Of a stretch of 64,000 nucleotides of DNA, positions 7,396 through 55,809 are shown in pieces. The notes below the pieces were generated by a model. That model was not told the origin of the DNA, did no database searches, and was given only the letters and a program-made list of their open reading frames with translations. The translations under genes and the position numbers were made by a program. The DNA is from a bacterium (GTDB lineage Bacteria > UBP14 > UBA6098 > 4484-93): contig JAGGUN010000019.1 of the NCBI GenBank assembly GCA_021158465.1, positions 82,796 to 146,795 on the forward strand. Direction: 5' to 3'. Position 1 is the stretch's first letter. Every line of letters starts with the position of its first letter.

Positions 7396-7410
7396 TTGAG
7401 GGAGAGATGA

Positions 7411-8823: not shown

Positions 8824-8856
8824 AAAATGTGCTATAAAAAGGGGAGTTCAAAAGAT

Positions 8857-12051: not shown

Positions 12052-12092
12052 TTGACTGAAACATAAGGAGTTAATTAGAAGGAGATAAACCG

Positions 12093-24315: not shown

Positions 24316-24986
24316 CCAGAAGGTTTATAGTTGGTCTTCTTTTGCTTCTGATCTCTGTTGGAAGCGTCTTCTCAGAGGAAGAAGCAGGTCAGAATAGGGT
24401 GACAATTGCCCGCTTGAAGTACAGTGGCGGAGGAGACTGGTACTATGGTCCAACACAGCTTCCCAACCTAATTGATTTCATTCGTGAGAATAGCAACATC
24501 CCGGCGTACTATAACGGGAAATATGTTGAGCTCACCGACGACGACCTGTTTAACTATCCGATCCTATATATGACGGGACACGGTAGGATAAAGCTGAGTG
24601 ACAAGGAGATAGAGCGCCTCCGGGAGTATCTCGAAGACGGAGGGTTCTTGCTTGCCAACGATGACTATGGACTTGACAAATCCTTCAGGGAAATGGTAAA
24701 AAGGCTGTTCCCGAATAAGGAACTGGTTGAGCTACCGTTCTCCCATGAGATATACCATTGCTTCTATGATTTTCCGAACGGTCTCCCAAAGATACACGAA
24801 CATGACGGCAATCCCCCACAGGGATTTGGTGTTTTTTGTGGCGGAAGGCTTGTTATCTTCTACGACCACGAATCGGACATCGGCGACGGCTGGGAGGACC
24901 CGAATGTCTACAACGACCCGGAAGAGAAGCGTGAGGCAGCGTTGAAGATGGGGTTGAACATAGTATTTTACGCTCTAACACATTGA
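24312..24986 (+). CDS. Secreted protein, DUF4159-like.
   Basis: Signal peptide MTRRFIVGLLLLLISVGSVFS. Segments IARLKYSGGGDWYYGP...NYPILYMTGHGRIKLSDKEIERLREYLEDGGFLLANDDYG resemble the DUF4159 family as I remember it. Proteins of that family often occur near MoxR/VWA/Bat loci. The assignment is from memory only. Confidence 0.45.
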   Translation: MTRRFIVGLLLLLISVGSVFSEEEAGQNRVTIARLKYSGGGDWYYGPTQLPNLIDFIRENSNIPAYYNGKYVELTDDDLFNYPILYMTGHGRIKLSDKEIERLREYLEDGGFLLANDDYGLDKSFREMVKRLFPNKELVELPFSHEIYHCFYDFPNGLPKIHEHDGNPPQGFGVFCGGRLVIFYDHESDIGDGWEDPNVYNDPEEKREAALKMGLNIVFYALTH

Positions 24987-27900
24987 TGCAAATGAAAATA
25001 ACAGAAATACTTAAAGCGGGTCAAGAGAAAATTGCTATAGCAAATGCTATTTTCGGCACATCCCTGTTTTTAACCACTGTTACCTCTGGCTTCGTTCTCT
25101 TCATTATACTTAACTCCATTGTCTTCTTCTCAAAAACTGCAACATCTATATATTTCTTTCTGTGGATTGCGCTTTCCGCTGTCTCATTTCTCTTTTTCGT
25201 CGTTCTACCGCTTATCCGCAGGGTATCATTTCGGGAGGTTGCTATCCGCTTCGAGAGAGCCTTTCCGCATCTTAAGAACCGGCTCATCTCTGCTTGGGAC
25301 CTTGTCTCGATGGACACAGAGTCGCTTGGATACTCGCAGGGGCTCATCGACCGTGTTGTCGAGGAAGCGGAGGCTCAGCTCCAATCCCTCGATCCAAGAA
25401 AACTTGTCTCCCTCCAGAGAATAGGGCAAGGTTTTATGCGGTTCTTTCTTTCGGTGCTCGTTATTCTCCTGGTATTTTTCGTATCGCCTCTCTCGTTTCA
25501 TAACGGGGTTTTAAGGCTATTCCACCCGTTCGAAAGCGTCACAAAACCGCTCGCAACAACAGCCGTTGTCTCCCCAGGTGATACCACCGTCACCAAGTTC
25601 TCGAATCTGACGATACAGGTTAAGACATCCGGCAAGCTCCCGCGGAGGGTATCACTCTTCCGCAAGGTCGAAAGCGGGAAGCTCATCGAGTTCCTATTTC
25701 GGCAAACAGACGAAGGAAGGTTCCAGTATAGGTTCGAGCATATAAATACCCCGTTCACATATTTTGTCAGGGCGAACGACTATATATCCCCAGTCTATAC
25801 TGTGAATGTGGTGGACAAACCGAGGGTGATAGACATAAAGCTCACGCTTCAACCTCCCGGATACACCGGCTTCCCGAGGGAGACCATCGACGAGAACGAT
25901 GGAAATATAGATTGTATAAAGGGGACCTATGTTCGATTGGAGATACTGACCAGTAAGAATATCACGGATGGATGGCTCGTATTCGACAAGGGGGACAGCT
26001 TGTCTATGGCGGTATCAGGACGCACCGCTGATGCTTCCTTCAGGGTTATGAGTTCAGGTAGCTACTTCATCCATGTAGTAGATGAGGATGGAAACCACAA
26101 CGAGGAACCGATCGTCTATTACATTCATGCCAGCACAGACGAACCCCCTCTTGTCTCGATAGAAAGACCAGGTGTTGATGTCGACATAACAGAGGATATG
26201 CTCCTTCCTATCACCATCCGTGGCACTGACGACTTCGGCTTTTCATCGTTCTACCTTTTCTGGAGTGTGAAAGGAGACACAGGCTATCAAAAGCTCCCGT
26301 TCAACCTGTTCGGTGAGAAGGAAGTGATGTTCGACTATGTCTGGAAACTTACCCCGCTCGGACTTCTGCCAAACGATGTCGCTACCTACTGGGTCACCGC
26401 ATATGACAACGACAATGTCTCTGGTCCGAAGATGGCAGAGAGCAAGCATTTCTCTGTTAGGTTCCCGTCGCTTGAAGAGATAGCTGAAAATCTGGTAAAG
26501 GAGCAGGAGGAAATAGGAAAAACCGTTCAGGATGTCTCGAGCTCGGAAGAGGATATGATAGAAAAAATGAAGAACCTCACCAAGGAACTCCAGCAGGTGC
26601 AGGAGAAGACACCATGGGAGAAAAAGGAGGAGTTGCAAGATATTCTGAAGAAACAAGAAAAGGCAATCGAGAAGCTCGAAGAGGTGTCCCAAAAGATATC
26701 AGAGGTATCAGAGAAGATAGAGAAGAACAGGCTTGCAACCTTATCCATCCTTGAGAAGATGGCGGAGATCCGGCAGATACTCGAGGATATAGCAACCCCC
26801 GAGATGCGTGAGGCGATGCAGAAACTTCAGCAAGCTCTCGAGAGCATGTCTCCTGAGATGCTTCGTGATGCTATGAAAAGGTTTCAGATCTCGCAGGAGG
26901 AGATGCTCCGGAAACTTGACAGAACACTCTCACTGTTGAAAAGGATACAGATAGAGCAACGCTTAAAAAACCTGACAGAGCTTGCATCTCGTCTTGCCGA
27001 ACAGCAGAAGAAGATAAACGATGAGCTGGCAAACTCGTCATTATCTGCCCTCGAGCGCCAGAGACTAAAACGGGAGGAAGAAAAGCTTAAGCAGGAGTTT
27101 GAAAGGGTAAAGGGTGAGGTGGAAAACCTCGCCGATATGATGAGTGAATTCCCTGATATGCCTTCGGAGGAACTGGACAAGCTTTCAAAGGAGCTCGATG
27201 CTGAGAACCTCTCTTGGCAGATGCAGGAGATGGCAAACCAGATTCCAGAATCTCCCAAGGGGGCTCGCAAGAGGGGAGCCGGTATACAGAAGGCTCTGGA
27301 GAAGCTTGCAGAGAAGCTGAAGGGAATACAGGATATGATGCAAAGTATGATGCTTGCCGCTCTGGACGCAGATATGAGGGAAGCAATCCTCTCACTGTTC
27401 TTACTCTCCAACAAGCAAGAGCAGGTATACACACAGCTTGCTGTTTTACCTCGGCAGGATGAAAAACTCCAGCAACTCGCCAGGGAAGAGGGAAAGATAG
27501 GAGAGATGCTGAAGCGCGTCACAGATGAGATTATGGAAATATCAGGGAAGACGGTATTCCTTACGAGCGGGGTCGCAAAAAGCCTTGGACTCGCCATCGA
27601 ACGGGTGGAATCAGCCGCAAGGGAAACCGCTATGAACCGCAACCCGCGTGATGGTGCTAAAAACTCAGTGGAGGCACTTGCCTATATAAATCAGGCGATC
27701 GAGCTCTTAATGCGTTCGAGGGAAAAAATGGCGAACTCATCATCGGCGACAGGTGCCGAGCAGTTCTTCCAACAGATGCAGAGCCTGTGCAACAGACAGC
27801 AGGGATTGAACCAGAATATGATGATGCTATTCGGACCAAACGGTGCTCAGGGGCAACTCACTATGGAACAGCAGGCAGCTTTGCAAAGATTGGCTGCCGA

Positions 27901-28306
27901 GCAACGGGCAATAAAGGAGGCACTTGAAGAGCTGGAAAAAGAATACGGAGAGCGCGAAAATCTTTTGGGCGATCTCAGCGAGATTGCAAAGGAAATGCAG
28001 GAAGTTATTGAGAGGATGAAGAGTAAGAATGTTGACCAGCAGCTAATCGAGAAGCAGGAGCATATACTATCCCGAATGCTCGACGCGCAGCGCTCCATCC
28101 ACAAGAAGGACTATACAGAAAAGAGAGAAGCTCGCACAGGTAAAGATATTGTCAGAAAAAGCCCCCCAGAAGTCAGCCTAACCGAGCAGGAAAATTGGAT
28201 AAGAACCGAAATGATGAAAGCCCTAAGTTCCAAATATCCAAGAGAATACGAAGAGATTATAAAAGCTTACTTTAAAGCATTACTGGAATCGCGAGGAAAA
28301 GAATGA
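24983..28306 (+). CDS. Large (1107 aa) membrane protein: three N-terminal transmembrane helices, a beta-rich middle domain, and a C-terminal coiled-coil region of about 600 aa. Possibly a DUF4175-like partner of DUF4159.
   Basis: Hydrophobic helices at residues about 25-50, 60-85 and 150-172. A long heptad-like, Glu/Lys/Gln/Leu-rich C-terminal half. Translationally coupled to the upstream DUF4159-like gene (4-nt overlap) and to the downstream TPR gene. Confidence 0.6.
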   Translation: MMQMKITEILKAGQEKIAIANAIFGTSLFLTTVTSGFVLFIILNSIVFFSKTATSIYFFLWIALSAVSFLFFVVLPLIRRVSFREVAIRFERAFPHLKNRLISAWDLVSMDTESLGYSQGLIDRVVEEAEAQLQSLDPRKLVSLQRIGQGFMRFFLSVLVILLVFFVSPLSFHNGVLRLFHPFESVTKPLATTAVVSPGDTTVTKFSNLTIQVKTSGKLPRRVSLFRKVESGKLIEFLFRQTDEGRFQYRFEHINTPFTYFVRANDYISPVYTVNVVDKPRVIDIKLTLQPPGYTGFPRETIDENDGNIDCIKGTYVRLEILTSKNITDGWLVFDKGDSLSMAVSGRTADASFRVMSSGSYFIHVVDEDGNHNEEPIVYYIHASTDEPPLVSIERPGVDVDITEDMLLPITIRGTDDFGFSSFYLFWSVKGDTGYQKLPFNLFGEKEVMFDYVWKLTPLGLLPNDVATYWVTAYDNDNVSGPKMAESKHFSVRFPSLEEIAENLVKEQEEIGKTVQDVSSSEEDMIEKMKNLTKELQQVQEKTPWEKKEELQDILKKQEKAIEKLEEVSQKISEVSEKIEKNRLATLSILEKMAEIRQILEDIATPEMREAMQKLQQALESMSPEMLRDAMKRFQISQEEMLRKLDRTLSLLKRIQIEQRLKNLTELASRLAEQQKKINDELANSSLSALERQRLKREEEKLKQEFERVKGEVENLADMMSEFPDMPSEELDKLSKELDAENLSWQMQEMANQIPESPKGARKRGAGIQKALEKLAEKLKGIQDMMQSMMLAALDADMREAILSLFLLSNKQEQVYTQLAVLPRQDEKLQQLAREEGKIGEMLKRVTDEIMEISGKTVFLTSGVAKSLGLAIERVESAARETAMNRNPRDGAKNSVEALAYINQAIELLMRSREKMANSSSATGAEQFFQQMQSLCNRQQGLNQNMMMLFGPNGAQGQLTMEQQAALQRLAAEQRAIKEALEELEKEYGERENLLGDLSEIAKEMQEVIERMKSKNVDQQLIEKQEHILSRMLDAQRSIHKKDYTEKREARTGKDIVRKSPPEVSLTEQENWIRTEMMKALSSKYPREYEEIIKAYFKALLESRGKE

Positions 28307-35163: not shown

Positions 35164-37842
35164 ATGTGCGGCAGTGGCTCAATGGATAGAGCGGCAGATT
35201 CCGGATCTGCAGGTTGGAGGTTCAAGTCCTCTCTGCCGCACATCCTTCCCCTTGTTGTTCTCCTTTTCTCTTGCTTTACGGTCTATGCCGGCAAACCTGA
35301 ACCGGGCAAGATCGGTGTCATAGCGTACATCCTACCAAGACCGGACTATGACTCGCTTCAGGGGCAAACCCCATCCCGGATAATATCGCATCTTAAGCAA
35401 CTTGCTTCATCCTCGCAGGCGCAGGTCATCAGCTTCCTCCAGCAAAGAAGTGAAGAGGTTGACACCTTTATCTCCTTATGGACGATAAATGCAATATACA
35501 TTATGACCACACAGGATGTCGTCAGTGCGCTTGCCGAGAGAGAAGATATAGAGAAGATTGTGCCCGACCGTGAGCGGAGGCTTGGTGAGCCTATCTTGTC
35601 TGATGCGAAGGATGCCTGGGACAATATCGGTGCAATCCGGGCTGACGAGGTTCACTCGGAGCTCGGCATCGATGGCACGGGTGTTATAATCGGCAGTATG
35701 GATTCTGGCGTCGACGGCTTTCATCCGGATCTTGAGGGGAATTTTCTTGGTAATGTCGAGCCTGGAAGGGTTGCTTGGTTTGACCCGACAGATGAGTACC
35801 CGCTCTATCCACAGGACGGACACGGACACGGGACGCATACGATGGGGACGGTCTGTGGACAGGGTGGAACAGGTGTTGCTCCAGGCGCACTCTGGATGGC
35901 GGTGAAGATATTCAGGGACAACTCGACATCGAGGGACTTTATCATACATTCTGGCTTCCAGTTCATCGCTGACCCGGATGACAACGCCTATACGGATGAT
36001 TTCCCGAGGCTTGTTAATAACTCTTGGGGCGAGCTCTTCTGCCGTGAAGGGATGCTATACTACGATGATGTCAGATTGTGGCGGCTCCTGGGTATAATAC
36101 CCGTTTTTGCCATTGGGAATGATGGACCGGAGGCATCCTCGACAACTCCTCCAGGGAACTACCCGAATGTCATATCAACAGGAGCAACGGACGCTTCGAA
36201 CAACATCGCATATTTCTCAAGCCGTGGACCTGCGCCTTCAGGCTCCCCATGGTTCGGAGCAACAAAACCGGACTTCTCAGCGCCGGGTGTTGGCATTCTA
36301 TCAACTGAGGCTGGGACAGGTGGCTACACTCTGATGAGCGGAACGAGCATGGCATCCCCGCATATAGCGGGCACCATCGCACTTATGCTTTCTGCCAACC
36401 CGACACTCGATTACGATGATGTCTACCGTATCCTGTCGGAAACCTCAGTGGACATAGCCGATCCAGGAATGGATAATATCTCTGGCTATGGTCTGGTCGA
36501 TGCGTACCGGGCGGTTCAACTTGCTATAGAAATGCGAGCACCGAGAATATACCATACTCCAATCACTGACAGAGAATCCGCCAATGTGACATTTGTGGCA
36601 ACAGTTGTTTCACCAACATCGCCTCTGGATACATCGTCGGTTGCGCTTATTCTGACATTTAGCGGGATACCAGACACCATCCCGTTCATACCCTCAGGTG
36701 ATTCGTTTTTCTGTGAGGTTTCGTTTCCTGGCGAGGGGGATGTCCAGTATTTTATACAGGCAGCAGACTCATTGGGTAGATTGGGTTGCCTCCCAAAATC
36801 TGCTCCTGATTCTGTCTTTTCGTTTCACATTGGAAGAGACTCAATCCCTCCTATCATAGAGTTCACGCCTATAGACTCCGTGCTATCCTATCTCATGTTT
36901 CCGCAGGACATCTCGGTTGAGGTAAGCGACAACGGGGAGATAGATAGTGTCTGGATTGAGCTGACAGATGAAGCGGGAACGAGAAGTATCCCTCTCGAGT
37001 ACGACCCACTGTGGGGGGTATATTCTGGAGAGATTGATTTAGAGCCGATTGGTGAGTTTTTCTACAGGATTGTAGCTATGGACAGAGCCTCAAATCTGTC
37101 CAGCTATCCACCAGATTGGGACAGTCTCCGCGTTGAGGTAGTTGACGATGGCACAATTGATCTTCTGTGGAGCACAGTAACGGAGATACCCGATTTTATT
37201 CCACCGTATTATGATCAGGAGACATGGAGCGTATTGGAGGTTCCCTGGCACTGTCGGGTCGAGTCAGTAAAAACGAGGGTTCATCTTACTTATCCGAGGA
37301 TGAGGAATATTGTGGCTGTACTCTACTCACCATCCGGCACAGAGGTATATCTCCACAACAGGGCATCACTTACCGACAGTGTGAACATCTGGTATCCGGA
37401 CGACAGGAGCGAGGATGGTCCGGGCTCTCTTTCAGATTTTACTTACGAGGATGCAGCGGGTGTATGGTATCTATATGTCGCAGATAGAAACGAGATGTAT
37501 CATGGCTACTATGGGACGCTTTTTGAGTGGGAGCTTATGCTGTTCTGCTCATCTATTGCAGAGGTGGAAGAAAAAAGTGCTCTGCCTGGGAGGTTTAAGC
37601 TTTCCGCCTATCCGAACCCGTTCAATTCGACAACCAAAATTTTATACAGCATACCTGAAACCGAGAAGAAGGCGGTTATTGAAATTTACAACATATTGGG
37701 AGAAAAGGTAGATAGCTTCTGCGCTGAACCAGGGCTGCACACCATCCTCTGGGATACAAAGAAACTTCCATCGGGAGTCTACCTCTGCCTGCTGAAGGGG
37801 AAGACTACCTCCGCATCTTTGAAGCTCTCACTTTTGAGGTGA
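35164..37842 (+). CDS. Secreted subtilisin-like S8 serine protease with an N-terminal propeptide and a T9SS type-A C-terminal sorting domain. The only in-frame start codons lie within or just before the tRNA-Arg gene.
   Basis: Catalytic triad contexts: Asp (IGSMDSGVDGFHPDL), His (HGHGTHTMGTV), Ser (GTSMASPHIAGTIAL). Inhibitor_I9-like propeptide. C-terminal tail LSAYPNPFNSTTKILY...EIYNILGEKV...SGVYLCLLKGKTTSASLKLSLLR. The predicted signal peptide is MDRAADSGSAGWRFKSSLPHILPLVVLLFSCFTVYA. Confidence 0.8.
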   Translation: MCGSGSMDRAADSGSAGWRFKSSLPHILPLVVLLFSCFTVYAGKPEPGKIGVIAYILPRPDYDSLQGQTPSRIISHLKQLASSSQAQVISFLQQRSEEVDTFISLWTINAIYIMTTQDVVSALAEREDIEKIVPDRERRLGEPILSDAKDAWDNIGAIRADEVHSELGIDGTGVIIGSMDSGVDGFHPDLEGNFLGNVEPGRVAWFDPTDEYPLYPQDGHGHGTHTMGTVCGQGGTGVAPGALWMAVKIFRDNSTSRDFIIHSGFQFIADPDDNAYTDDFPRLVNNSWGELFCREGMLYYDDVRLWRLLGIIPVFAIGNDGPEASSTTPPGNYPNVISTGATDASNNIAYFSSRGPAPSGSPWFGATKPDFSAPGVGILSTEAGTGGYTLMSGTSMASPHIAGTIALMLSANPTLDYDDVYRILSETSVDIADPGMDNISGYGLVDAYRAVQLAIEMRAPRIYHTPITDRESANVTFVATVVSPTSPLDTSSVALILTFSGIPDTIPFIPSGDSFFCEVSFPGEGDVQYFIQAADSLGRLGCLPKSAPDSVFSFHIGRDSIPPIIEFTPIDSVLSYLMFPQDISVEVSDNGEIDSVWIELTDEAGTRSIPLEYDPLWGVYSGEIDLEPIGEFFYRIVAMDRASNLSSYPPDWDSLRVEVVDDGTIDLLWSTVTEIPDFIPPYYDQETWSVLEVPWHCRVESVKTRVHLTYPRMRNIVAVLYSPSGTEVYLHNRASLTDSVNIWYPDDRSEDGPGSLSDFTYEDAAGVWYLYVADRNEMYHGYYGTLFEWELMLFCSSIAEVEEKSALPGRFKLSAYPNPFNSTTKILYSIPETEKKAVIEIYNILGEKVDSFCAEPGLHTILWDTKKLPSGVYLCLLKGKTTSASLKLSLLR
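35168..35240 (+). tRNA. tRNA-Arg, anticodon CCG.
   Basis: A cloverleaf folded by hand. Acceptor stem GCGGCAG/CTGCCGC. D-arm GCTC-AATGGATA-GAGC. Anticodon stem GCAGA/TCTGC with loop TTCCGGA (U33, anticodon CCG, purine 37). Variable loop AGGTT. T-arm GGAGG-TTCAAGT-CCTCT. Discriminator A. CCA is not encoded. Length 73 nt. Confidence 0.85.
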
Positions 37843-38107
37843 CCTTCCTTGTTGTATGTTTCGTTTTCCTTGATGGAACACCCTTCTTTCTTGTTCTGCT
37901 CTTCTTTTCTATGCGGTCGTTTATACCGTTCCTGTCTTTATCGATGAAGTAGTCGAATAACCTGATAGAGGAGCTGGGTTTCTTCTTTTCGACCTTCTCT
38001 TGCTCCACTTCCGTTGTATCCCTGTCGCCTTTTTGCTCGCCCGCCGATGCAGAAGCAAATAATAGCACAAGTGTACTCACCACGATCGGTATCAGATACC
38101 TTCTCAT
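37805..38107 (-). CDS. Small (100 aa) secreted protein with a polybasic Lys/Arg/Ser/Thr-rich tail and an EF-hand-like DKDRNGINDRIE motif.
   Basis: Signal peptide MRRYLIPIVVSTLVLLFASASA. RBS on the minus strand (AAGGAGAGGGAGA). C-terminus KKSRTRKKGVPSRKTKHTTRKVTSKVRASKMRR. Its 3' end overlaps the convergent protease gene by 38 nt. Confidence 0.45.
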   Translation of the reverse strand: MRRYLIPIVVSTLVLLFASASAGEQKGDRDTTEVEQEKVEKKKPSSSIRLFDYFIDKDRNGINDRIEKKSRTRKKGVPSRKTKHTTRKVTSKVRASKMRR

Positions 38108-38108
38108 C

Positions 38109-39014
38109 TTATCTCCCTCTCCTTATCAGTTTCACACGGGTTGAACTTCCCCGAGCAGCTGTTGCTCTGAAGGAACCTTTGCTTGAGTATCCTATCGACG
38201 ACCTCTTGGTGATAGGACCCTTTGAAGGGTTCTTGCTTTTGATCTTGGTGGATTTGACCTCTTTATCATCCTTCCTCAGAAAAAACAAATTCTGTCTTCC
38301 CTTTTCAGGAATTTTTTTCTCCTTGGAACGCTCCGTCAGGGATTTCTTATTTCTCTCCAAGCCGATTGGTGAGTTTTTTCTCCTTCTCAGTGTTGTCGAG
38401 TTATCCTTTTTATGTTTCTTCCTTGTGCTGTTTTCCGTGGAGGTTTTCTCTATTATCTTCGCTACGCTTCCTGTACTTTTGCTCTTTGGCAGTATCTTTC
38501 TACCACCGACGGCACTGGCGACCTGCGTTACAGAGGAAGCAACCCTGCTTCCTGTATATCTTTTGACTTCGGCACTTCTATATTTCGCTGGTAAAAGCGA
38601 TGTCGATTCCCCCGGTTCCCTGAACAGCCCTCTTCTCCTCGTTATCCGGTATCCCGAGGTGGTGTAGCTGCCTCGATATCTGACCGGAGGTGGTTCATAG
38701 TAATAAGGGTAATAAGGATAATAATAGGGTGGGGAAGGGGGAGGCAGGTACCAGAGGAGAACTACCGGATGCCAGAAGCATCGGCAGTGCCAGCAGTAGG
38801 TGTCCAACCACCAATGGTCACAGCAAAGATGCCAACAACAGCAATCATCCCACCACCAGTCACAGCAGCAACAACAGCAGTCGTCAACAACAATGTCCGG
38901 TGGATCGGCAATGACCACACGGGAATGTGTTCTAAGCACTGTTTGGCAGCCGGAAAGTATGAGGGCAAAAACTACTACTGCACCGACCGCCATTATACCT
39001 TTATAATATCTCAT
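38109..39014 (-). CDS. Lipoprotein of 301 aa with an extreme Cys/Trp-rich tract, a Pro/Tyr-rich tract and a polybasic tail of about 200 aa predicted to be disordered.
   Basis: Strong RBS (AAGGAGGG, then 5 nt, then ATG). Lipobox MRYYKGIMAVGAVVVFALILSGC. The tract DDCCCCCCDWWWDDCCCWHLCCDHWWLDTYCWHCRCFWHP has 14 Cys and 6 Trp in 40 residues. This is followed by YLPPPSPPYYYPYYPYYYEPPP and then a Lys/Arg/Ser/Thr-rich C-terminal half. The start overlaps the upstream gene's stop by 14 nt. Confidence 0.5.
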   Translation of the reverse strand: MRYYKGIMAVGAVVVFALILSGCQTVLRTHSRVVIADPPDIVVDDCCCCCCDWWWDDCCCWHLCCDHWWLDTYCWHCRCFWHPVVLLWYLPPPSPPYYYPYYPYYYEPPPVRYRGSYTTSGYRITRRRGLFREPGESTSLLPAKYRSAEVKRYTGSRVASSVTQVASAVGGRKILPKSKSTGSVAKIIEKTSTENSTRKKHKKDNSTTLRRRKNSPIGLERNKKSLTERSKEKKIPEKGRQNLFFLRKDDKEVKSTKIKSKNPSKGPITKRSSIGYSSKGSFRATAARGSSTRVKLIRRGR

Positions 39015-39813
39015 TTTTGCCCTCCTTGTTATAAAGCTTTATCCTTTTATTTGTCCTTTCCCTCAGCTCCGGGTTGCCGGTGTCCGTCTGATAAGCCCAC
39101 TCGAACTGAACATAATCCGGGGTAACTTCTATTATCCATATCTTGGCAAAATGGTTGTCGCAGGTCCAGATAACATATCCCCAGCCAGGGTGTATCTCAA
39201 CCGTTGCCCCAGGTATATACCCATCTTCCGGTGCGTAGTCTATATCCTCGAACGAATATATCTGCCCGTAAACGAGAATATCCGTCATAGAGTTTGCACC
39301 GGAGAGCCAGTACATACCGTCGTAGTTGAAATATATATCAGCAGAGGGGTAATCCCACGGGACGAGCGAATACTCGGAGAAATCATACCCCGAATCATCC
39401 GGATAACGGTCCGCATCCCAGAGGATCGCAAAACCTTCGGGTCTCGGCGTGTCGAACACGAGGTCATCCGAGAGCTCCGATTCCACCCCAGACCACGAGA
39501 CAGAAGAGACTGCATAATAGTATGTCTTACCGTTTTCGGCAGAGAAATCAATAAAGTAGCTCGACAAGGTCTCACCGATAAGATAGTAATATCCCGTCTC
39601 ACTGTACCCGCGATAAACCCGGTAGCTCCAGGCTCCACAGGGGGTCCAGTAAAGATAGACCCGGTTGTCACCCGTCACCGAGTGCACATTCGTTGGAACA
39701 GGGGGAGGATAATCTCTACGAGCATGATAACAATAATCATCATAAACAACCACATCACACCCGAAGAATGCAAGGAGCGAGAGAAGAACATCTATGATGA
39801 CTACCCTCTTCAT
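39001..39813 (-). CDS. Lipoprotein with an FN3-like domain followed by an aromatic/Asp-rich beta-sandwich region.
   Basis: Signal and lipobox-like MKRVVIIDVLLSLLAFFGC. FN3-like segment (PPVPTNVHSVTGDNRVYLYWTP...YRVYRGYSETGYYYLIGETLSSYFIDFSAENGKTYYYAVSSVSWSGVESELS). First gene of the three-gene minus-strand operon. Confidence 0.55.
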   Translation of the reverse strand: MKRVVIIDVLLSLLAFFGCDVVVYDDYCYHARRDYPPPVPTNVHSVTGDNRVYLYWTPCGAWSYRVYRGYSETGYYYLIGETLSSYFIDFSAENGKTYYYAVSSVSWSGVESELSDDLVFDTPRPEGFAILWDADRYPDDSGYDFSEYSLVPWDYPSADIYFNYDGMYWLSGANSMTDILVYGQIYSFEDIDYAPEDGYIPGATVEIHPGWGYVIWTCDNHFAKIWIIEVTPDYVQFEWAYQTDTGNPELRERTNKRIKLYNKEGKNEIL

Positions 39814-40029
39814 TTTTCATCCCCTCTACAAACTTTGAAGCAAATAATATGCCATATAAGGCAACTCTTTACGTTTCAATCGGTTACGCGAGAAAACGAG
39901 GGAAAATATTCCACGAAATTGCACATTTCTCGTGCAATGAGAGCAGCAATTTTGTGCAAAACCGGTTGCGCAAGAAGATAATTCGGATTATATTTAAAAC
40001 GGCAGGATGTAAAAATTAAGGAGGGGGAA

Positions 40030-40395
40030 ATTTATCTTTTAACGGCAAAAGGTGGTTTCTCTGCTGCACATTGGGTAAGAGGGTACCCGGGGAAATGCTC
40101 TCACCTACACGGACATAACTGGCAGGTTCAGCTAACCGTTAGGGTAGATGAGCTGGATTCACTCGGTATGGGGATCGACTTCTCCGAGCTAAAGGGCATC
40201 CTGAAGGAGATAACCGACCTTTTAGACCACACCTGCTTGAACGAGCTTCCGTTTTTTTCGGAGACGAACCCGACAGCCGAGAACATCGCAAGGTTTCTAT
40301 TCTACGAGGCAAAAAAGAGGCTCCCAAATGGTGTTAAACCCTATGAGCTGAAGCTCTGCGAGAGCGATAACAGCTGGATAACATACAGGGAGTAA
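40030..40395 (+). CDS. queD: 6-carboxy-5,6,7,8-tetrahydropterin synthase (QueD). No ATG, GTG or TTG start codon is available upstream of the conserved N-terminus, so the start is tentatively placed at an ATT codon.
   Basis: The in-frame translation upstream of the listed ATG at 40168 reads ...IYLLTAKGGFSAAHWVRGYPGKCSHLHGHNWQVQLTVRVDELDSLGMGIDFSELK. This carries the QueD zinc-binding Cys-x-His-Gly-His motif and the F-x-AAH motif. An in-frame TAA stop sits at 39979-39981. The RBS AAGGAGGGGG ends about 8 nt before ATT at 40030. Confidence 0.7.
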   Translation: MYLLTAKGGFSAAHWVRGYPGKCSHLHGHNWQVQLTVRVDELDSLGMGIDFSELKGILKEITDLLDHTCLNELPFFSETNPTAENIARFLFYEAKKRLPNGVKPYELKLCESDNSWITYRE

Positions 40396-46858: not shown

Positions 46859-48498
46859 AAAGGTTCGCCATACCGATCGTAATCCTCGTTTCGCTTACGG
46901 CGTTCCTATTCTTCTTTGAGATACCAAGGGGAAAGAAACAAGCGTTAGAACAGCATCTCATTCCAGAGCTTTGTCTTACCGAGGTTAACCAGTTCGAGAT
47001 ATCATCTCGAGAGGTGAACGCAAAGCTCGTAAAGGATACGCTCGGTATCTGGTGGATAAAGGACCCCATCGAGACAAGAGCGGACTCTGCCACGATCACT
47101 CGGATCCTCACGGCGCTTGATACAGCAAGGATTGAGGAGGTGATCGAGGCAACCGACAGACCGACGAAATTTGGGCTGGATGAGCAGAACCGAATAACCT
47201 TCGTCCATCAAAAGGATACACTGCTTGTCGGCAGAAGCAATCCAACAGGAAGATTGTGCTATGTTAAGAGCTCGAGAAAAGAGAATCTGTTGCTCGTTCC
47301 TGATGTTGTCAGACGAAGCCTCACCAAAACCCTATACGACCTAAGGGACAAATCGGTATTCCACTTCGACCCGAAGGATGCTGTCAAGCTTGAGATAGCA
47401 AGACCCTCCGATACAATCAGAGCAGAAAAATCCCCAGACGGCACCTGGAGAGTCGTTGAGCCAGAGAATTTCATCTGCGAGAAGGCACAGGTTATGCTCA
47501 TCCTGAACGCAATTGCACATATGAAAGCGAAGAGCTTTGTGCGCGAGACGGCGGACTCGCTGGGAAGATACGGTCTCCTTAAACCAGATGTGAAAGCAGT
47601 GGTTCGGCTCAAGGATGGAGAGGAGAGGACCTTCCTGATCTCGAGCAAGCAATCAGAAGCAAAATACAATTACGCAGAAAACCCCGAGATGGGAAAGATT
47701 ATCACGGTCAGCCCAATTGTTTTCAAAAGGTTAACGGTCGAACCTGACCAACTGCGGATAAAAACGCTTCTTACACTTTCCGATATCGATTCTATAAGGA
47801 TCGAAGGAAAGCATACCCTTCTGATCAGGAACAGATTCGGCAGGTTTAGCATAGAAGGTCAAGCAAGGACAGATCAGGGTATTGTTCAATCTATGATAAG
47901 GAAATTCACAAACATAAAGGCAGACTCCCTCCTGCGAAATGTTATGTGCGAACGGACAGGCAAGAGAATAAGCTTCTTCTCGGGAAAAGAGTCCGAGCAT
48001 TTCCTGCTCTGCGGTAAGAGGGGAAACCACATTCTCATTAAGAAGAAAAATGAGAAAATATTATATCTTATGCCAGCCTCGATGGCGGATTGGTTCGATA
48101 AATCAGCAGACGATTTCCTCGACAAGCGTTTCCTCACCTTCGATAAGGAAGAGATAAGTAAGGTCACACTGCTGGTGAACGACACCACATTCGAGGCTGT
48201 GAAAGGGGAAAAGGGTTGGCAACTAACTTTACCTCGTAAGAAGAAACTTAAGGATGACAGTGTGCGACACCTCGTCGACTATGTTGGCGAACTCAGCTGG
48301 AACGAGCTACTCCCCGACACTACAGAGATAGGGGAGATAAGTATCATTGCCCAAATAGCAAGCAAGAGTGGCGAAGAAATAACGATACAATTCACAGGGG
48401 CTGCTACCTCCAGTGCAATATTTGAGGGAAAGAAATATTCCGTCGACTACTATAAAATCGGAAGAGTAAGAAGTTGGTTCGAGGAGGAAATAAGATGA
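46855..48498 (+). CDS. Membrane-anchored protein, DUF4340-like. This family commonly follows gldG-like genes.
   Basis: N-terminal TM helix (FAIPIVILVSLTAFLFFF). The rest is soluble beta-rich repeats. The assignment rests on gene context and recollection of DUF4340 neighbourhoods. Confidence 0.4.
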   Translation: MKRFAIPIVILVSLTAFLFFFEIPRGKKQALEQHLIPELCLTEVNQFEISSREVNAKLVKDTLGIWWIKDPIETRADSATITRILTALDTARIEEVIEATDRPTKFGLDEQNRITFVHQKDTLLVGRSNPTGRLCYVKSSRKENLLLVPDVVRRSLTKTLYDLRDKSVFHFDPKDAVKLEIARPSDTIRAEKSPDGTWRVVEPENFICEKAQVMLILNAIAHMKAKSFVRETADSLGRYGLLKPDVKAVVRLKDGEERTFLISSKQSEAKYNYAENPEMGKIITVSPIVFKRLTVEPDQLRIKTLLTLSDIDSIRIEGKHTLLIRNRFGRFSIEGQARTDQGIVQSMIRKFTNIKADSLLRNVMCERTGKRISFFSGKESEHFLLCGKRGNHILIKKKNEKILYLMPASMADWFDKSADDFLDKRFLTFDKEEISKVTLLVNDTTFEAVKGEKGWQLTLPRKKKLKDDSVRHLVDYVGELSWNELLPDTTEIGEISIIAQIASKSGEEITIQFTGAATSSAIFEGKKYSVDYYKIGRVRSWFEEEIR

Positions 48499-49397
48499 GA
48501 TCGATTGTTCTGCTGGCACTTTTGTTGCTCTCACCGACGCTCGTTATTGCTCAACCGGATACAACACAGGTCACCACAGACAACCTAACCGTCTCATCCG
48601 AGGTGAACAAAACAGCCCTCCCGCAGAACGATACCCTCATCTTAACCGTTAGCTTCCGTGTCAGCGGAGATATTGACAACTACATCTTCCACGAGATAAA
48701 GCCACCCACCGTCTCTAATCTGAAGCTCTTCAAAACATCATCTGCAAACAGAACAGCCGAGGAGAGCGGAGAGCTTATCACATACAGGGAATACAGATTC
48801 TACTACCTCCCTGTTTCTGTAGGTATGGGCTATATTGACCCCGCTATCCTCTCATACGATTTCGTTCCCGCGGGAACAACTCGCAGACTTGCGACGGCAA
48901 GGATCGAGGTTGAGATAAAAGAGCCTGTAAAGGTTAAGAAAGGTGGCTTCCCCATCTGGATCCTCGCGGTAATAATAGCTGTGGTTCTGGCTATCGTATC
49001 GGCTTATATTATCATCCACAGGCGCAGGAAAACCCCGAAAGAAGAAGAAGAGATACAGGTTCCGCTTGAAGAAGAACTGCTGGAGAAGCTTAAGGAGACA
49101 AAACAGCTACAAAAGGAGGACCCAGATGAGTTTATCGCCAGGATATCAATGCTCACGAGAAGATACATAGCGAGGAAATACAATATCCCTGCTGAGATCG
49201 CCTCGAGAGAGGAATTGGTGCAGGCTTTGAGCGAGCTTGGAGCTCCGAGCTTCTCCAAGTTCGAATGGATACTTAACAGGCTTGACGAGATAAAGTTCGC
49301 CAGGCGTAAACTCCAGACCACCGAAACAGAAGAATTATATGGAAAGCTTGAAGCCATACTGGAAGAGAATCTTCCCAAAGGAGGGGATAATGAATGA
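48495..49397 (+). CDS. BatD-like single-pass membrane protein, first of three BatD-family paralogs in this locus.
   Basis: Signal peptide (MRSIVLLALLLLSPTLVIA), beta-rich ectodomain, TM helix (IWILAVIIAVVLAIVSAYIII) followed by HRRRK. The cytoplasmic helical tail contains FIARISMLTRRYIARKYNIP. This tail resembles the 310-aa paralog (FTQLSDILREYLEARFDVP) and the BatD C-terminus (LISETLEKYISERLLIP). Confidence 0.45.
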   Translation: MRSIVLLALLLLSPTLVIAQPDTTQVTTDNLTVSSEVNKTALPQNDTLILTVSFRVSGDIDNYIFHEIKPPTVSNLKLFKTSSANRTAEESGELITYREYRFYYLPVSVGMGYIDPAILSYDFVPAGTTRRLATARIEVEIKEPVKVKKGGFPIWILAVIIAVVLAIVSAYIIIHRRRKTPKEEEEIQVPLEEELLEKLKETKQLQKEDPDEFIARISMLTRRYIARKYNIPAEIASREELVQALSELGAPSFSKFEWILNRLDEIKFARRKLQTTETEELYGKLEAILEENLPKGGDNE

Positions 49398-50379
49398 GGA
49401 GATTGTAAAGCTGAACGCTGAAATTGAGAAGGAGAGCGAATTCATTGACAGGATTCGTGAGGCAATTCACAAGAGGATAATCGGTCAAGAGGTACTAATC
49501 GACAGGCTACTGATAGGACTTTTATCCGATGGGCACATCCTACTCGAGGGTGTGCCTGGGCTTGCTAAAACACTCGCTGTCAGAACCCTCTCAGATGTTA
49601 TCAACACAAACTTCCAGAGGATTCAGTTCACACCAGACCTCCTTCCAGCGGACATAATCGGTACCCTTGTCTATAACCACCAAACAGGTGAGTTCATCAC
49701 CAAAAAAGGACCGATATTCTCCAACATCATCCTTGCTGATGAGATAAACCGCGCACCAGCAAAGGTACAGTCAGCACTACTCGAGGCAATGCAGGAACGA
49801 CAGGTAACCATCGGTGACGAGACTTTCAAGCTCGATTCGCCGTTCCTTGTTATGGCAACCCAAAACCCTATCGAACAGCAGGGAACATACCCGCTTCCTG
49901 AAGCACAGATCGACCGATTTATGCTGAAGGTGATCATAGATTATCCAAAGAGGGAAGAAGAGAAACAGATTATGAAACTTTACTCAGAGAAGAATTTTAT
50001 CCCTCTCGAACCCGTAGTCGAGCCAAAGGAAATACTCGCCGCAAGAGAACTGGTCAAGAAGATATATGTAGATGAGAAGATAGATAACTACATTCTCGAC
50101 ATCGTATTTGCCACACGACATCCAGAGAAATACGGAATGGAAGAGTTATCCGACCTTATTGCCTGGGGGGCATCACCGAGAGCAAGTATATACCTCAAGA
50201 AGGTTGCTCGTGCCCATGCCTTCATCAAGCACAGGGGGTATGTCACGCCAGAGGATGTCAGAGCAATGCTCTTCGATGTATTGAGGCACAGGGTTATCGT
50301 CACTTATGAGGCGGAGGCAGAGGAGTTGACATCCGAGGATATTATCCGCAAGATAGTCAACAGGATAGAGGTTCCATAA
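49390..50379 (+). CDS. MoxR-family AAA+ ATPase.
   Basis: IIGQEVLIDRLLIGLLSDGHILLEGVPGLAKTLAV (Walker A variant), LADEINRAPAKVQSALLEAMQERQVT and VMATQNP are all typical MoxR motifs. The start is set at ATG 49390 with RBS GGAGGGG. Confidence 0.9.
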   Translation: MNEEIVKLNAEIEKESEFIDRIREAIHKRIIGQEVLIDRLLIGLLSDGHILLEGVPGLAKTLAVRTLSDVINTNFQRIQFTPDLLPADIIGTLVYNHQTGEFITKKGPIFSNIILADEINRAPAKVQSALLEAMQERQVTIGDETFKLDSPFLVMATQNPIEQQGTYPLPEAQIDRFMLKVIIDYPKREEEKQIMKLYSEKNFIPLEPVVEPKEILAARELVKKIYVDEKIDNYILDIVFATRHPEKYGMEELSDLIAWGASPRASIYLKKVARAHAFIKHRGYVTPEDVRAMLFDVLRHRVIVTYEAEAEELTSEDIIRKIVNRIEVP

Positions 50380-50380
50380 T

Positions 50381-51256
50381 ATGATACCGAAGGAGATACT
50401 GAAGCGGATAAGGCGGATCGACCTCAAGACACGTCGACTCGTCAACGACATATTCTCCGGTGAATACCACAGCGTCTTCAAAGGCAGAGGTGTTGAATTC
50501 TCAGAGGTAAGGGAATACGCCGTTGGCGATGATATAAGAACGATAGACTGGAATGTCACTGCTCGGATGAACCGCCCGTATGTCAAGCTGTTCGAAGAGG
50601 AACGCGAGCTGACAGTTATGCTACTGTTCGACATAAGCTCATCCGGTGAGTTCGGCTCTGTCTCACGCCTGAAGCGAGACATCGCAGCGGAGATATGTGC
50701 CGTGCTTGCATTCTCCGCCATCCAGAACAACGACAAGGTTGGACTCATCCTCTTCACTGACACAATCGAGAAGTTCATCCCTCCAAAGAAAGGGAAAAGG
50801 CATATTCTCAGAATCCTGAGAGAACTTTTATACTATAAACCGCAGGACAAAAAGACCGATATTGCAGCCTCCCTTGAGTTTCTCCTTAGAGTGACACAGA
50901 AACGGACTATTTCTTTCCTCGTCTCAGATTTTATCGCAGAAGGATATGAAAAGCCGCTCGCTATAGCCAGCAAGAAGCATGACATAATCCCTGTGGTCAT
51001 AACCGACCCAAGGGAAATAAGCCTCCCATCTATCGGGCTTATTGAGCTTGAGGATGCAGAGACAGGCGAGATGCTGCTGCTCGATACCAAGGATATGAGC
51101 ATTATCAAACAGTTCTCGGAGAGCGCCGTTGCCTCGATAGAGAAGAGAAAAAATATCTTTAACTCCGTCGGGCTGGATACAATAGAAGTTTCAACCGACA
51201 CCGACTACCTGCCAAAGCTTGTGAGCTTCTTCCGCAGGAGGGAAAGAAGGCTTTAA
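50381..51256 (+). CDS. DUF58-family protein, the usual VWA-like partner of MoxR ATPases.
   Basis: VFKGRGVEFSEVREYAVGDDIRTIDWNVTARMNRPYVKLFEEERELTVMLLFDISSS is characteristic of DUF58. Confidence 0.85.
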   Translation: MIPKEILKRIRRIDLKTRRLVNDIFSGEYHSVFKGRGVEFSEVREYAVGDDIRTIDWNVTARMNRPYVKLFEEERELTVMLLFDISSSGEFGSVSRLKRDIAAEICAVLAFSAIQNNDKVGLILFTDTIEKFIPPKKGKRHILRILRELLYYKPQDKKTDIAASLEFLLRVTQKRTISFLVSDFIAEGYEKPLAIASKKHDIIPVVITDPREISLPSIGLIELEDAETGEMLLLDTKDMSIIKQFSESAVASIEKRKNIFNSVGLDTIEVSTDTDYLPKLVSFFRRRERRL

Positions 51257-51267
51257 AAGGAGGAAAG

Positions 51268-52185
51268 ATGGACAACAAACTTCTCAATATTGTTGCTATT
51301 GCTCTCCTCGTTCTAATATTCTTATTCTCCGTTCTAACCTGGGTCTCCGTAAGGGGGACCAAGGAAGAAAATTTATCTACTCTGATAAGCTATGCAAGTA
51401 GGCTCAGGGATTCGGGTCTGTATAAACAGGCTATCGAGACATACGAGAAGCTTCTGGAAAAGGGCAAGCTTAATAAAGAGAAAGCAGAGAACATAATCTA
51501 CACGATCGGGGCGATTTATATGGATGACCTACGAGATTACTCCAACGCTCTTGCTCAATTCTTGAAATTGCGAGAGCTATACCCAAAATCTAACCTCTTA
51601 TCCGATGCACAGAAGAGGATCGTTACCTGTCTGGAGCATATAGGAGAATCAGCGCAGGCGCAGAGAGAGCTTGAGAGAGCAACATCTGTGGGGAGGACAG
51701 AGGAGATCCGCCCAGGTGATATTGTTGTCGCTGAGATCGGTAAGAGAAGAATATCTCTCCGAGAGCTGGATAAGGCTTACAATAACCTCCCTGAACAGAT
51801 GAAGAAGCAGTTTGCAGGAAAGGCAGGGAAGAAGCAGTTCTTGTCGAGCTATGTTGCCCAAGAGCTTGTATATGATGCTGCTGTTCGAGCCGGGCTCGAT
51901 CAGGAACCAGAAATCGCAGAAACCATAGAAAACATCAAGAAGCAGATCCTTCTTCAGGAATACTATAAGAGAAATATAGGGAAGGAGATAAAACCGACGG
52001 AGTCCGACCTCCGGCTTTATTACGATGCACACAAGGATGAGTTCGAAGGGAAAGGCTTCAACGAGGTAAGAGAGACGGTGAAGCAGCGTTATACAGAGGA
52101 AAAGATAAAGGAGAAGGAACAGGAGCTTCTCTCAAAGATGCTCCAGTCACAGGATGTGAAGATATACCCTGATAGCGTAAGGTAA
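51268..52185 (+). CDS. Membrane-anchored protein with a TPR-like region and a SurA/PpiD N-terminal-like chaperone domain.
   Basis: N-terminal TM helix (LLNIVAIALLVLIFLFSVLTWVSV). TPR-like helices. A later segment (ISLRELDKAYNNLPEQMKKQFAGK...QFLSSYVAQELVYDAAVRAGL...KQILLQEYYK) resembles SurA N-terminal domains. Confidence 0.45.
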   Translation: MDNKLLNIVAIALLVLIFLFSVLTWVSVRGTKEENLSTLISYASRLRDSGLYKQAIETYEKLLEKGKLNKEKAENIIYTIGAIYMDDLRDYSNALAQFLKLRELYPKSNLLSDAQKRIVTCLEHIGESAQAQRELERATSVGRTEEIRPGDIVVAEIGKRRISLRELDKAYNNLPEQMKKQFAGKAGKKQFLSSYVAQELVYDAAVRAGLDQEPEIAETIENIKKQILLQEYYKRNIGKEIKPTESDLRLYYDAHKDEFEGKGFNEVRETVKQRYTEEKIKEKEQELLSKMLQSQDVKIYPDSVR

Positions 52186-52190
52186 AGCGT

Positions 52191-54105: not shown

Positions 54106-54117
54106 GGGAGGATAGAT

Positions 54118-55808: not shown

Positions 55809-55809
55809 G

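Follow-up and report, generated by a model that had tools for sequence, protein, structure and literature searches.

A predicted sigma-54-controlled operon for an acidic lipoprotein and exported proteins with polycationic tails recurs across the FCB group of phyla

What do three tightly packed genes for exported proteins do when no curated protein family covers any of them? The question is raised by a locus in a 64,000-nucleotide stretch of bacterial DNA (contig JAGGUN010000019.1; this whole stretch is called the window), in which genes A, B and C follow one another on the minus strand. The window operon is a single instance of a module found repeatedly in the Fibrobacteres-Chlorobi-Bacteroidetes (FCB) group of phyla. 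In transcriptional order, the module comprises a dyad, a sigma-54 promoter, an acidic FN3/HmuY-like lipoprotein (A), a B-type protein and C. We are highly confident that these are, jointly, real genes that belong to a conserved module, are controlled by sigma-54 and encode exported products. The three genes are as follows.

39001–39813, minus strand: gene A, a 270-residue acidic lipoprotein
38109–39014, minus strand: gene B, a 301-residue lipoprotein composed of a head and a tail
37805–38107, minus strand: gene C, a 100-residue exported protein

These open reading frames (ORFs) and their spacing had been proposed in an earlier note made from the sequence, and the coordinates proved exact, with a 14-nt overlap between A and B and a 1-nt gap between B and C. 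The Shine-Dalgarno sequences that it had described correspond to purine-rich elements (GAGGGG, AAGGAGGG and GGAGAGGGAG) located 7–14 nt 5' of each ATG. The translations contain the expected export signals, with lipoboxes in A (LAFFG-C19) and B (LILSG-C23) and a signal-peptidase-I site in C (ASA/G). Composition counts reproduce the reported Cys/Trp cluster, Pro/Tyr tract and Lys/Arg/Ser/Thr-rich tails. The isoelectric point (pI) above 11 given in the earlier note needs one correction: it applies only to the tails of B (11.5) and C (12.0) and not to the whole proteins (9.9 and 10.7, respectively). The tight packing of the three genes suggests that they are co-transcribed.

The coding status of the genes was assessed by comparison with the syntenic locus of candidate division Zixibacteria bacterium 4484_93 (L001), which also served as the reference for the promoter. 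The L001 locus has the layout of the window: queD-queE-queC run in the divergent direction on one side of A, B and C, and a convergent gene for an S8 peptidase lies on the other. In a protein search, A and B are 84% and 60% identical to their L001 orthologues, respectively. The ratio of nonsynonymous to synonymous substitution rates (dN/dS), obtained in a codon-level comparison, is 0.14 for A. The ratio is 0.29 for whole B, with 0.10 in the aromatic head (residues 24–130) and 0.44 in the tail, and 0.29 for whole C, with 0.12 in its core; the housekeeping gene queE gives 0.10. Each segment of A, B and C lies below 0.5, and codon third positions carry an excess of changes in A, the B head and C. 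The three genes are under purifying selection. Substitutions in the B tail exhibit little position bias (34, 42 and 42 at the three codon positions). The six indels in B (3, 9, 3, 6, 12 and 27 nt) are all multiples of 3, and a population variant from another sample carries an extra 6-nt in-frame insertion in the B tail. A 44-nt run that was also scored in the B comparison is attributed to the longer B–C spacer of L001. The plus-strand ORFs that could have competed with the minus-strand model (38014–38667 and 38690–39125) are not kept as ORFs in L001. A, B and C are all genuine protein-coding genes.

The region upstream of A contains three elements that suggest how the operon is controlled.

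39839–39854, minus strand: sigma-54 -24/-12 promoter TGGCATATTATTTGCT, starting 41 nt 5' of the A ATG
39919–39937, unstranded: candidate enhancer (upstream activating sequence), the perfect dyad TTGCAC-N7-GTGCAA, centred ~82 nt 5' of the promoter
39946–39965, minus strand: conserved block CCGGTTTTGCACAAAATTGC, which holds a further TGCACAA half-site

The sigma-54 consensus TGGCAY-N5-TTGCW matches the window twice, against 0.08 matches expected. The second match, at 48514, was dismissed as probably fortuitous because it lies inside Leu/Ala codons of a signal peptide. The dyad is found once in the window, with 0 occurrences expected by chance. Both elements persist in L001: the GG and TTGC of the promoter are kept though the spacer differs, and the dyad is kept while the surrounding DNA diverges. 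The conserved block shares 19 of 20 bases with L001 inside an otherwise diverged spacer and is possibly a second activator site. A scan for sigma-70 promoters and terminators gave no signal above shuffled sequences.

The promoter and dyad accompany gene A beyond these two genomes. Of 32 loci that have a basic-tailed partner, 21 have a high-scoring -24/-12 element between -150 and +30 relative to the called start of A, and the element occupies -36 to -49 in 19 of those 21 (random 180-nt windows, 0.86%); several further related loci have TTGT at -12. The dyad, with the consensus TGCACAATTTTTGTGCA, is also present in 19 of the 21 promoter-bearing loci. When all loci fetched around A homologues were scanned on both strands for a dyad followed by a promoter 40–140 nt later, 23 matches were obtained in 22 loci, each directly upstream of A. 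In 22 related loci, the dyad TGCAC-N7-GTGCA is located 55–123 nt 5' of the promoter and at no other place in those loci. The A-operon dyad has the 17-bp geometry of the Escherichia coli NtrC box, TGCACCAnnnTGGTGCA (PMC8743547), and comparative genomics has linked sigma-54 regulons to the bacterial exterior (PMC3162934). A metagenome scan for the exact dyad returned mostly unrelated contigs, and A operons made up 4 of the 13 cases in which the dyad was paired with a promoter. The remaining cases, which include an Hsp20/ECF sigma locus and genes for exported proteins, could not be linked to that regulator and were set aside. In these unrelated metagenome contigs, the exact dyad TGCACAATTTTTGTGCA and a sigma-54 promoter were thus observed 5' of non-A genes (L130, oriented 7483–9150; L098, 5825–7075; L123, 5498–6499). 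The genes at these sites encode a 134-residue protein followed by Hsp20 and an extracytoplasmic function (ECF) sigma factor, a ~340-residue exported protein and a 203-residue outer-membrane-like protein, and they may be further targets of related activators.

A gene encoding a response regulator with REC, sigma-54-activator and HTH_8 domains lies immediately 5' of A in four Zixibacteria-type loci. The A-adjacent regulators of L009, L053, L063 and L082 have a recognition helix of the form GIHRNTLRxKIKEY. The window encodes a REC, Sigma54_activat and HTH_8 response regulator at 7411–8799, which is 44% identical to one of these A-adjacent regulators (L082). A role as the cognate activator is not supported because its recognition helix differs from those of the A-adjacent regulators, and the cognate activator is therefore probably encoded outside the window. 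The sigma-54 gene rpoN was not found in the window. In 41 loci, mostly from Ignavibacteria, a ~1260-residue HAMP histidine kinase gene lies two genes 3' of A, after a gene for a DUF4783 protein. A 982-residue ORF beside the window regulator was considered as a relative of this giant kinase and is unrelated to it.

The order of A, B-type gene and C is found in WOR-3, Stahlbacteria, TA06, Cloacimonadota, Hydrothermae, unclassified lineages and relatives of Zixibacteria, and partial forms of the module are found in KSB1 and one Gemmatimonadota-labelled genome. The earlier note had asked whether the genes co-occur in other genomes and had guessed at an undescribed envelope module; the recurrence of the gene order in several phyla, together with a common regulatory architecture, strengthens that guess. 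Lipoboxes or signal peptides are present in all three protein families. B-type proteins are exported and combine a variable head, usually an RRRG motif, and an extended tail that is polycationic and predicted to be disordered. Three kinds of head occur: an aromatic/Cys-rich knot (in the window), DUF4384 plus PEGA, and FecR plus DUF6600. The arrangements after A are listed by type.

L003–L005 and ten metagenome proteins, gene after A: signal peptide, CCCC/W/D run, core W.WPPCWRRI.RIYYSPCGWYRYEYY.YPC.GC.YVYVEGRWVYRR, RRRG, and a Ser/Thr/Arg/Lys tail with a terminal basic cluster
WOR-3, Stahlbacteria and TA06, genes after A: Tyr/Trp/Asp/His-rich head with a basic tail, then a separate DUF4384 plus PEGA protein
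Zixibacteria-type and other loci, gene after A: one fusion of 330–486 residues comprising DUF4384 (with or without PEGA), an aromatic region and a basic tail
Hydrothermae, gene after A: FecR plus DUF6600 head

DUF4384 plus PEGA is a protein of its own in WOR-3, whereas in Zixibacteria-type loci it forms one polypeptide with the aromatic region and the basic tail. A basic-tailed exported protein follows A in every locus that lacks a DUF4783 partner and has enough downstream sequence. The final 80 residues of the partners carry a net charge of +5 to +26 in 24 of 26 loci and of -1 and +2 in the others, compared with a background mean of +1.3. In one locus of a 5-Mb genome (CP070758; L083, 5001–10822), A stands in a single row with a basic-tailed DUF4384 partner, a porin of the FadL/Toluene_X type, DUF4783 and a HAMP kinase of 1502 residues, which joins two partner types that are separate elsewhere. 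PDB sequence searches with the DUF4384 plus PEGA and FecR plus DUF6600 partners returned no matches, and literature searches turned up no functional studies of DUF4384, DUF6600 and DUF4783 or of lipoproteins from Zixibacteria.

Protein A is strongly acidic (pI 4.3, net charge -24) and is built, from the N-terminus, of a lipobox, a short acidic Cys/Tyr linker, an FN3 domain, an HmuY-like β-sandwich and a conserved C-terminal GNPEL motif. A protein search collected at least 1240 clusters for this family at E ≤ 0.001. Named sources include Zixibacteria, KSB1, WOR-3, Gemmatimonadota and Melioribacteraceae, and, according to genome records, the family also occurs in Stahlbacteria, TA06, Cloacimonadota, Hydrothermae and Eisenbacteria, as well as in the cultured Melioribacter, Rosettibacter and Ignavibacterium. 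The family alignment contains 34 invariant columns, including those of DTPRPEG, WTxDNHFAK and FDWAYQxDxGNPEL, and the lipobox Cys is invariant across the family. Pfam and NCBIfam scans assigned A to no family, and Pfam also returned nothing for six homologues at E values up to 1.

The AlphaFold2 model of A (predicted local distance difference test (pLDDT) score of 83) consists of two β domains. Residues ~36–122 form a seven-strand β-sandwich that can be superposed on solved FN3 domains, and the A-family profile matches the solved FN3 structure 3mpc with an E value of 4.4e-9 in a PDB sequence search. The Pfam fn3 model does not match A. The second domain of the model is all-β with an HmuY-like fold. 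The Pfam HmuY model matches neither A nor the six homologues at E values up to 1, and the PDB sequence search found nothing beyond FN3. The haem ligands of HmuY are two His residues, and His/His or Met/Met pairs serve as axial ligands in its family; the C-terminal domain of A has a single near-invariant His (H221, in DNHFAK). A TonB-dependent receptor gene adjoins the operon neither in the window nor in L001, where the neighbours are queDEC and the S8 peptidase gene, and none is found among the annotated recurrent neighbour clusters. Because there is no sequence-level HmuY signal, no evident pair of conserved haem ligands and no adjoining TonB-dependent receptor, the modelled second domain of A is taken as HmuY-like in fold only.

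Acidity is uniform across the A family (median pI of 4.19, median net charge of -25). In 20 of 28 members, Asp or Glu comes after the lipid-modified Cys. An acidic stretch at this lipoprotein position is a surface-export signal in Bacteroidota (PMC5080379, PMC10319031). In close relatives of A (P0003, P0009, P0016, P0032 and P0035), the linker after the Cys is rich in Cys, Asp, Trp and Tyr (for example, GCDFYCCDDPYYYDHGGCSDCWCDD). Such Cys/Trp-type linkers occur in genomes whose B-like protein bears a poly-Cys/Trp run. The matching A linker and B run suggest a common local environment or disulfide partnering.

Protein B of the window is divided into compositionally distinct segments.

38751–38885, minus strand: residues 44–88, an acidic Cys/Trp cluster with 14 Cys, 9 Trp and 7 Asp
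38685–38750, minus strand: residues 89–110, the Pro/Tyr tract YLPPPSPPYYYPYYPYYYEPPP
38700–38724, minus strand: 9-nt in-frame tandem repeat CCTTATTAC, encoding P-Y-Y and making part of the Pro/Tyr tract
38628–38639, minus strand: residues 126–129, RRRG at the junction of head and tail
38112–38666, minus strand: residues 117–301, the Lys/Arg/Ser/Thr-rich tail of 185 residues (pI 11.5, net charge +39), ending in RRGR

The tails of B and C both fall far on the disordered side of a charge-hydropathy plot. Pfam and NCBIfam scans assigned B to no family, no fold was found for its head, and the poly-Cys region has a pLDDT below 50 in the model. Clustering at 90% identity places B-related sequences in two clusters among 5.8 billion sequences, namely its own and that of the L001 orthologue. 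The profile of the Cys/Trp-type head matches only 15 proteins among 1.84 billion representatives, so the recognisable B-head family is small.

The canonical B-like family (profile A3) comprises L003–L005, from three unclassified genomes, and ten metagenome proteins. The contigs that carry B-like genes also carry A homologues, and in L003–L005 the B-like gene is directly 3' of A. Runs of CCCC/W/D like that of B sit after the signal peptide in this family, and RRRG is invariant in 12 of 12 aligned B-like proteins and recurs in DUF4384-fused partners (L006, L028, L074, L083 and L084). Window B shares with the canonical family the signal peptide, the CCCC/W/D run, RRRG, the basic tail and the position between A and C. 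The canonical core YYSPCGWYRY...PCxGC...RWVYRR is absent from window B and L001, which have the Pro/Tyr tract in its place. Most B-like relatives have AxA signal-peptidase-I sites, in contrast to the lipobox of window B. B is a fast-evolving positional counterpart of the B-like proteins and probably a divergent homologue of them.

CXXCH-like motifs were observed in many B-type counterparts. They take the form C[HY]WCH[HR]F in the WOR-3 type (L007–L065); the DUF4384-fused partners have CYDCH[HWR]P, and L085 has CHDCH (listed loci: L006, L060, L070, L083 and L085). Window B contains no CXXCH haem-attachment motif and reads CWHCRC.

Protein C consists of a signal peptide, a short motif region and a basic tail with a pI of 12.0 (residues 69–100) and a net charge of +16 (residues 68–100).

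Residues 1–22, minus strand: signal peptide with the ASA/G site
37907–37948, minus strand: conserved motif FIDKDRNGINDRIE, of the DxDxNG type

The conserved DxDxNG is the centre of the C-family core F-x-D-x-[DN]-x-[DN]-G-[IV]-[DN]-D. A motif search that combined a signal peptide, this core and a basic tail identified 19 loci, in all of which the gene lies 3' of A and a B-type gene, and the core was found in no gene outside the module among 3749 ORFs. Overall, C-like genes are present in 24 loci in addition to those of the window, L001 and L085, and each lies in the downstream part of its module; in a Cloacimonadota C-like protein, the motif is repeated at least 8 times. Window C scores 47.7 bits against a profile of the 24 C-like proteins built without the window and L001 sequences, a score that 0 of 2000 shuffled sequences reach (best shuffle, 9.3), and it matches the L004 protein with a BLASTP E value of 2e-8. 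By these matches, C is a clear member of a small-protein family. The NCBIfam scan assigned C to no family. The earlier note had labelled C EF-hand-like. That label does not hold, given that DKDRNGINDRIE has Asn instead of a hydrophobic residue at position 8 and Lys, again not hydrophobic, after position 12, as judged by eye against a PROSITE-type pattern. Pfam scans of C and of the multi-repeat C-like protein found no EF-hand, TSP_3 or dockerin match.

The charges of the module are opposite and extreme, with -24 on A compared with +39 on the B tail and +16 on the C tail. They form the core of the explanation that we favour, a conserved inducible envelope module in which the tails bind polyanions and A serves as an anchor; as a whole, this is the best explanation available, held at a level somewhat short of probable. 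Transcription would proceed via sigma-54 and a two-component enhancer-binding protein, a need that implies a signal-induced rather than a constitutive module. The A, B and C products would then go to the cell envelope (periplasm or cell surface), a destination in keeping with the link between sigma-54 regulons and the bacterial exterior; there the disordered tails (+39 and +16) could act electrostatically by binding polyanionic envelope material. Candidate polyanions include lipopolysaccharide (LPS) or phospholipid head groups, peptidoglycan-associated polymers and extracellular DNA. The lipid-anchored, acidic A (-24) would serve as a membrane-bound partner or anchor of the tails, and the outcome would be a stabilised or tethered envelope layer. 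This polyanion-tether mechanism, taken separately, is tentative. An equally tentative extension would see a multi-phylum sigma-54/NtrC-type system that loads FCB envelopes with polycationic disordered proteins on a signal and thereby cross-links or shields LPS, anionic lipid or extracellular DNA. The tails might then be protein counterparts of divalent cations or polyamines, held by the acidic FN3/HmuY-like lipoprotein, and the heads and the DxDxNG loop might represent new small folds.

Several observations weigh against this explanation. The match of window B to the B-like family is weak. Against the B-like profile built without the window and L001 sequences, window B scores -7.4 bits (shuffles: mean -15.7, standard deviation 3.8), a score that 61 of 2000 shuffles reach, and pairwise BLASTP gives an E value of 7e-4. 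Window B is assigned to the same component by its position and architecture because sequence similarity is weak. The window probably encodes no cognate activator for the operon, the helix-turn-helix (HTH) of its own regulator being unlike the A-adjacent ones. In ~45 Ignavibacteria/Melioribacter loci, a non-basic DUF4783 protein follows A, from which it follows that the conserved surface and acidity of A are independent of a polycationic partner.

Other explanations attribute the module to different functions or to none. A, B and C could constitute a sensor-accessory or feedback module that is induced by its own two-component system and modulates the extracytoplasmic sensor domain of the kinase, much as CpxP modulates CpxA and FecR-type proteins relay signals. 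The partner heads are of kinds common in signalling proteins, including the FecR plus DUF6600 head of Hydrothermae, and DUF4384 is reported as an accessory domain of Ser/Thr kinases and orthocaspases. The giant HAMP kinase two genes 3' of A in 41 loci (further downstream in L083) and the sigma-54 response regulator directly 5' of A in 4 loci point in the same direction. However, neither a kinase nor an activator adjoins the module in the window or in WOR-3-type loci, and the kinase adjacency comes almost entirely from one clade, Ignavibacteria, so it could be inherited synteny. The 180-residue polycationic tails would also have no role, and a sensor-accessory function is rather unlikely. Metal or haem handling is less likely again; here a metal or cofactor would be bound by the Cys/Trp/His head of B, and haem or a different tetrapyrrole by the HmuY-like domain of A, in the manner of hemophore-like lipoproteins from Bacteroidota. 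It draws on the 14 Cys and 5 His within 93 residues of B, on the four conserved Cys of the canonical B-like core (including the SPCG and PCxGC knuckles) and on CXXCH in WOR-3 B-like proteins and several DUF4384-fused partners. HmuY itself is a haem-ligating surface lipoprotein (PMC2671838). The CXXCH motifs of the relatives had raised a haem or cytochrome function for this locus, which was set aside because window B lacks the motif. Moreover, WOR-3 and Cloacimonadota counterparts have no Cys run and are Tyr/Trp/Asp-rich instead, A has no Pfam HmuY match and only the one near-invariant His (H221), no TonB-dependent receptor adjoins the operon in the window or L001, and the poly-Cys region of B is modelled with a pLDDT below 50.

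B and C could instead be cut at RRRG and other multibasic sites, perhaps by the P-domain subtilase encoded next to them, which would release polycationic fragments with antimicrobial, adhesive or biofilm-matrix functions outside the cell. The invariant RRRG at the junction of head and tail would suit such processing, as would the S8 peptidase whose gene is convergent on C in both the window and L001 and which combines a P_proprotein domain with a tail for type IX secretion. The core of the canonical B-like proteins, CWRRIIRIYYSPCGWYRY..., presumably resembles Arg/Trp/Tyr/Cys-rich β-hairpin antimicrobial peptides. Nevertheless, the peptidase adjacency is confined to two closely related genomes (its cluster, c20, is not found beside the module elsewhere), and the module, in the loci where this was seen, lies among housekeeping genes (pyrRBC, hrcA-grpE-dnaK and queDEC), unlike bacteriocin loci, with no immunity or export genes. 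Released peptides or adhesins are accordingly improbable. An artefact, in the form of chance minus-strand frames in purine-rich DNA or of genuine genes at the plus-strand ORFs 38014–38667 and 38690–39125, would agree with the low complexity of the B tail and its near-equal substitutions by codon position (34, 42 and 42). It would have to accommodate a dN/dS below 0.5 everywhere (0.10–0.12 in the B head and C core), seven independent in-frame indels, antisense ORFs that are broken differently in L001, the 47.7-bit match of C to an independent family profile and a gene order kept across phyla, and its probability is negligible. The envelope module with polyanion-binding tails thus stays ahead of these explanations.

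The candidate FCB phyla that carry the module (Zixibacteria, WOR-3, KSB1, Cloacimonadota, Hydrothermae and others) are known almost solely from metagenomes, and their envelopes are unstudied. The control region is recognisable by sequence, so the module can be found, and its regulon traced, from sequence alone, which provides the first way into a sigma-54 regulon of these phyla. The module also ties DUF4384, DUF6600 and DUF4783 to one genomic context and offers tractable parts, namely a well-folded lipoprotein, a 100-residue protein with a single motif and extreme polycationic tails. If the tails are envelope-binding polycations, they would represent a mode of envelope organisation undescribed in model bacteria.

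The genes around the operon include several unusual features of their own. Convergent on C is a subtilase gene (35164–37842, plus strand), whose 892-residue product has a P-domain of the proprotein-convertase type together with a sorting tail for type IX secretion. The gene overlaps the 3' end of C by 38 nt, and the arrangement is the same in L001. A link between this subtilase and the multibasic RRRG sites is speculative. A tRNA-Arg(CCG) gene (35168–35241, plus strand) overlaps the listed ATG of this S8 peptidase ORF (35164), and the start of the peptidase must therefore lie further downstream. On the other side of the operon, no ATG, GTG or TTG codon is available to start the conserved N-terminal half of queD (~40030–40395, plus strand; ..FSAAHW..GKCSHLHGHNW..). 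The queD frame reaches an ATT just after the Shine-Dalgarno sequence GGAGGGGG, as it does in L001, and queD probably uses this non-canonical ATT start codon. Farther away, a row of unusual envelope genes occupies 4447–15002 on the plus strand.

4447–7395, plus strand: Peptidase_MA_2, PD40 and Omp85 fusion
7411–8799, plus strand: NtrC-type response regulator
8827–12051, plus strand: 1074-residue CHU_C type IX secretion cargo
12093–15002, plus strand: PorP/SprF, CARDB and OmpA fusion

Two further ORFs, of 1107 residues (24983–28306, plus strand) and 501 residues (16615–18120, minus strand), have no Pfam match, and AT skew is unusually high (0.22) between 26 and 28 kb. A long row of genes that all lie on the plus strand (48496–57612), which includes a BatD-domain protein (55810–57612), comes after a gliding-type ABC transporter auxiliary gene and DUF4340.

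The module has no characterised counterpart. The earlier note had recognised no characterised system, and searches agree: Pfam, NCBIfam and PADLOC returned nothing above noise for A, B and C or the counterparts scanned with them, including the anti-phage defence models of PADLOC, and the PDB sequence search returned only FN3 in A. This rating is given because only generic features (a lipoprotein, an FN3 fold and a sigma-54 promoter) are shared with characterised systems and no curated family covers A, B and C; it describes a lack of characterisation and does not imply new biochemistry. What is new here is the cross-phylum recurrence of the order A, B-type gene and C, with the sigma-54 promoter and dyad upstream of A. 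Neither these control elements nor the second domain and strong acidity of A nor the fast evolution of B figured in the earlier note. Type IX secretion sorting domains (Por_Secre_tail or CHU_C), which neighbouring genes of the window carry, were found by Pfam in none of the three proteins. The DxDxDG calcium loops of EF-hand, thrombospondin type 3 and dockerin proteins have the same Asp/Asn/Gly spacing as the C core, but C fails the canonical EF-hand pattern, lacks flanking helices and has no Pfam match. Protein A resembles the HmuY/Tfo hemophore-like lipoproteins of Bacteroidota in its HmuY-like fold only. It differs from them in having no sequence match, no evident pair of conserved haem ligands and no adjoining TonB-dependent receptor, and in its additional N-terminal FN3 domain, sigma-54 control and polycationic partners.

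The closest regulatory likeness is to NtrC-activated promoters of the glnAp2 type, which share the GG-N10-GC element and a 17-bp TGCAC-N7-GTGCA dyad ~80 nt upstream. The A-operon half-sites are TGCACAA rather than TGCACCA, the downstream genes are unrelated to nitrogen assimilation, and the A-adjacent activator, where present, is a generic REC-AAA-HTH_8 protein. Among envelope proteins, chlamydial OmcA and OmcB, whose genes lie together, pair a small Cys-rich lipoprotein with a Cys-rich partner that has a basic polyanion-binding segment, and their disulfides are proposed to stiffen the envelope. The module is not homologous to this pair and belongs to other phyla under other regulation; its Cys content is not conserved, the WOR-3 versions being Tyr/Trp-rich with few Cys. 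Mycobacterial HBHA, Neisseria NHBA and the basic linker of RcsF have Lys/Arg-rich disordered segments that bind polyanions such as heparan sulfate, DNA or LPS. B and C are likewise predicted envelope proteins with a Lys/Arg-rich disordered segment, by analogy and not by homology, as there is no sequence relationship. The B tail is much longer (185 residues, +39) than these segments, is paired with an aromatic/Cys-rich head and is encoded in an operon with an acidic lipoprotein.

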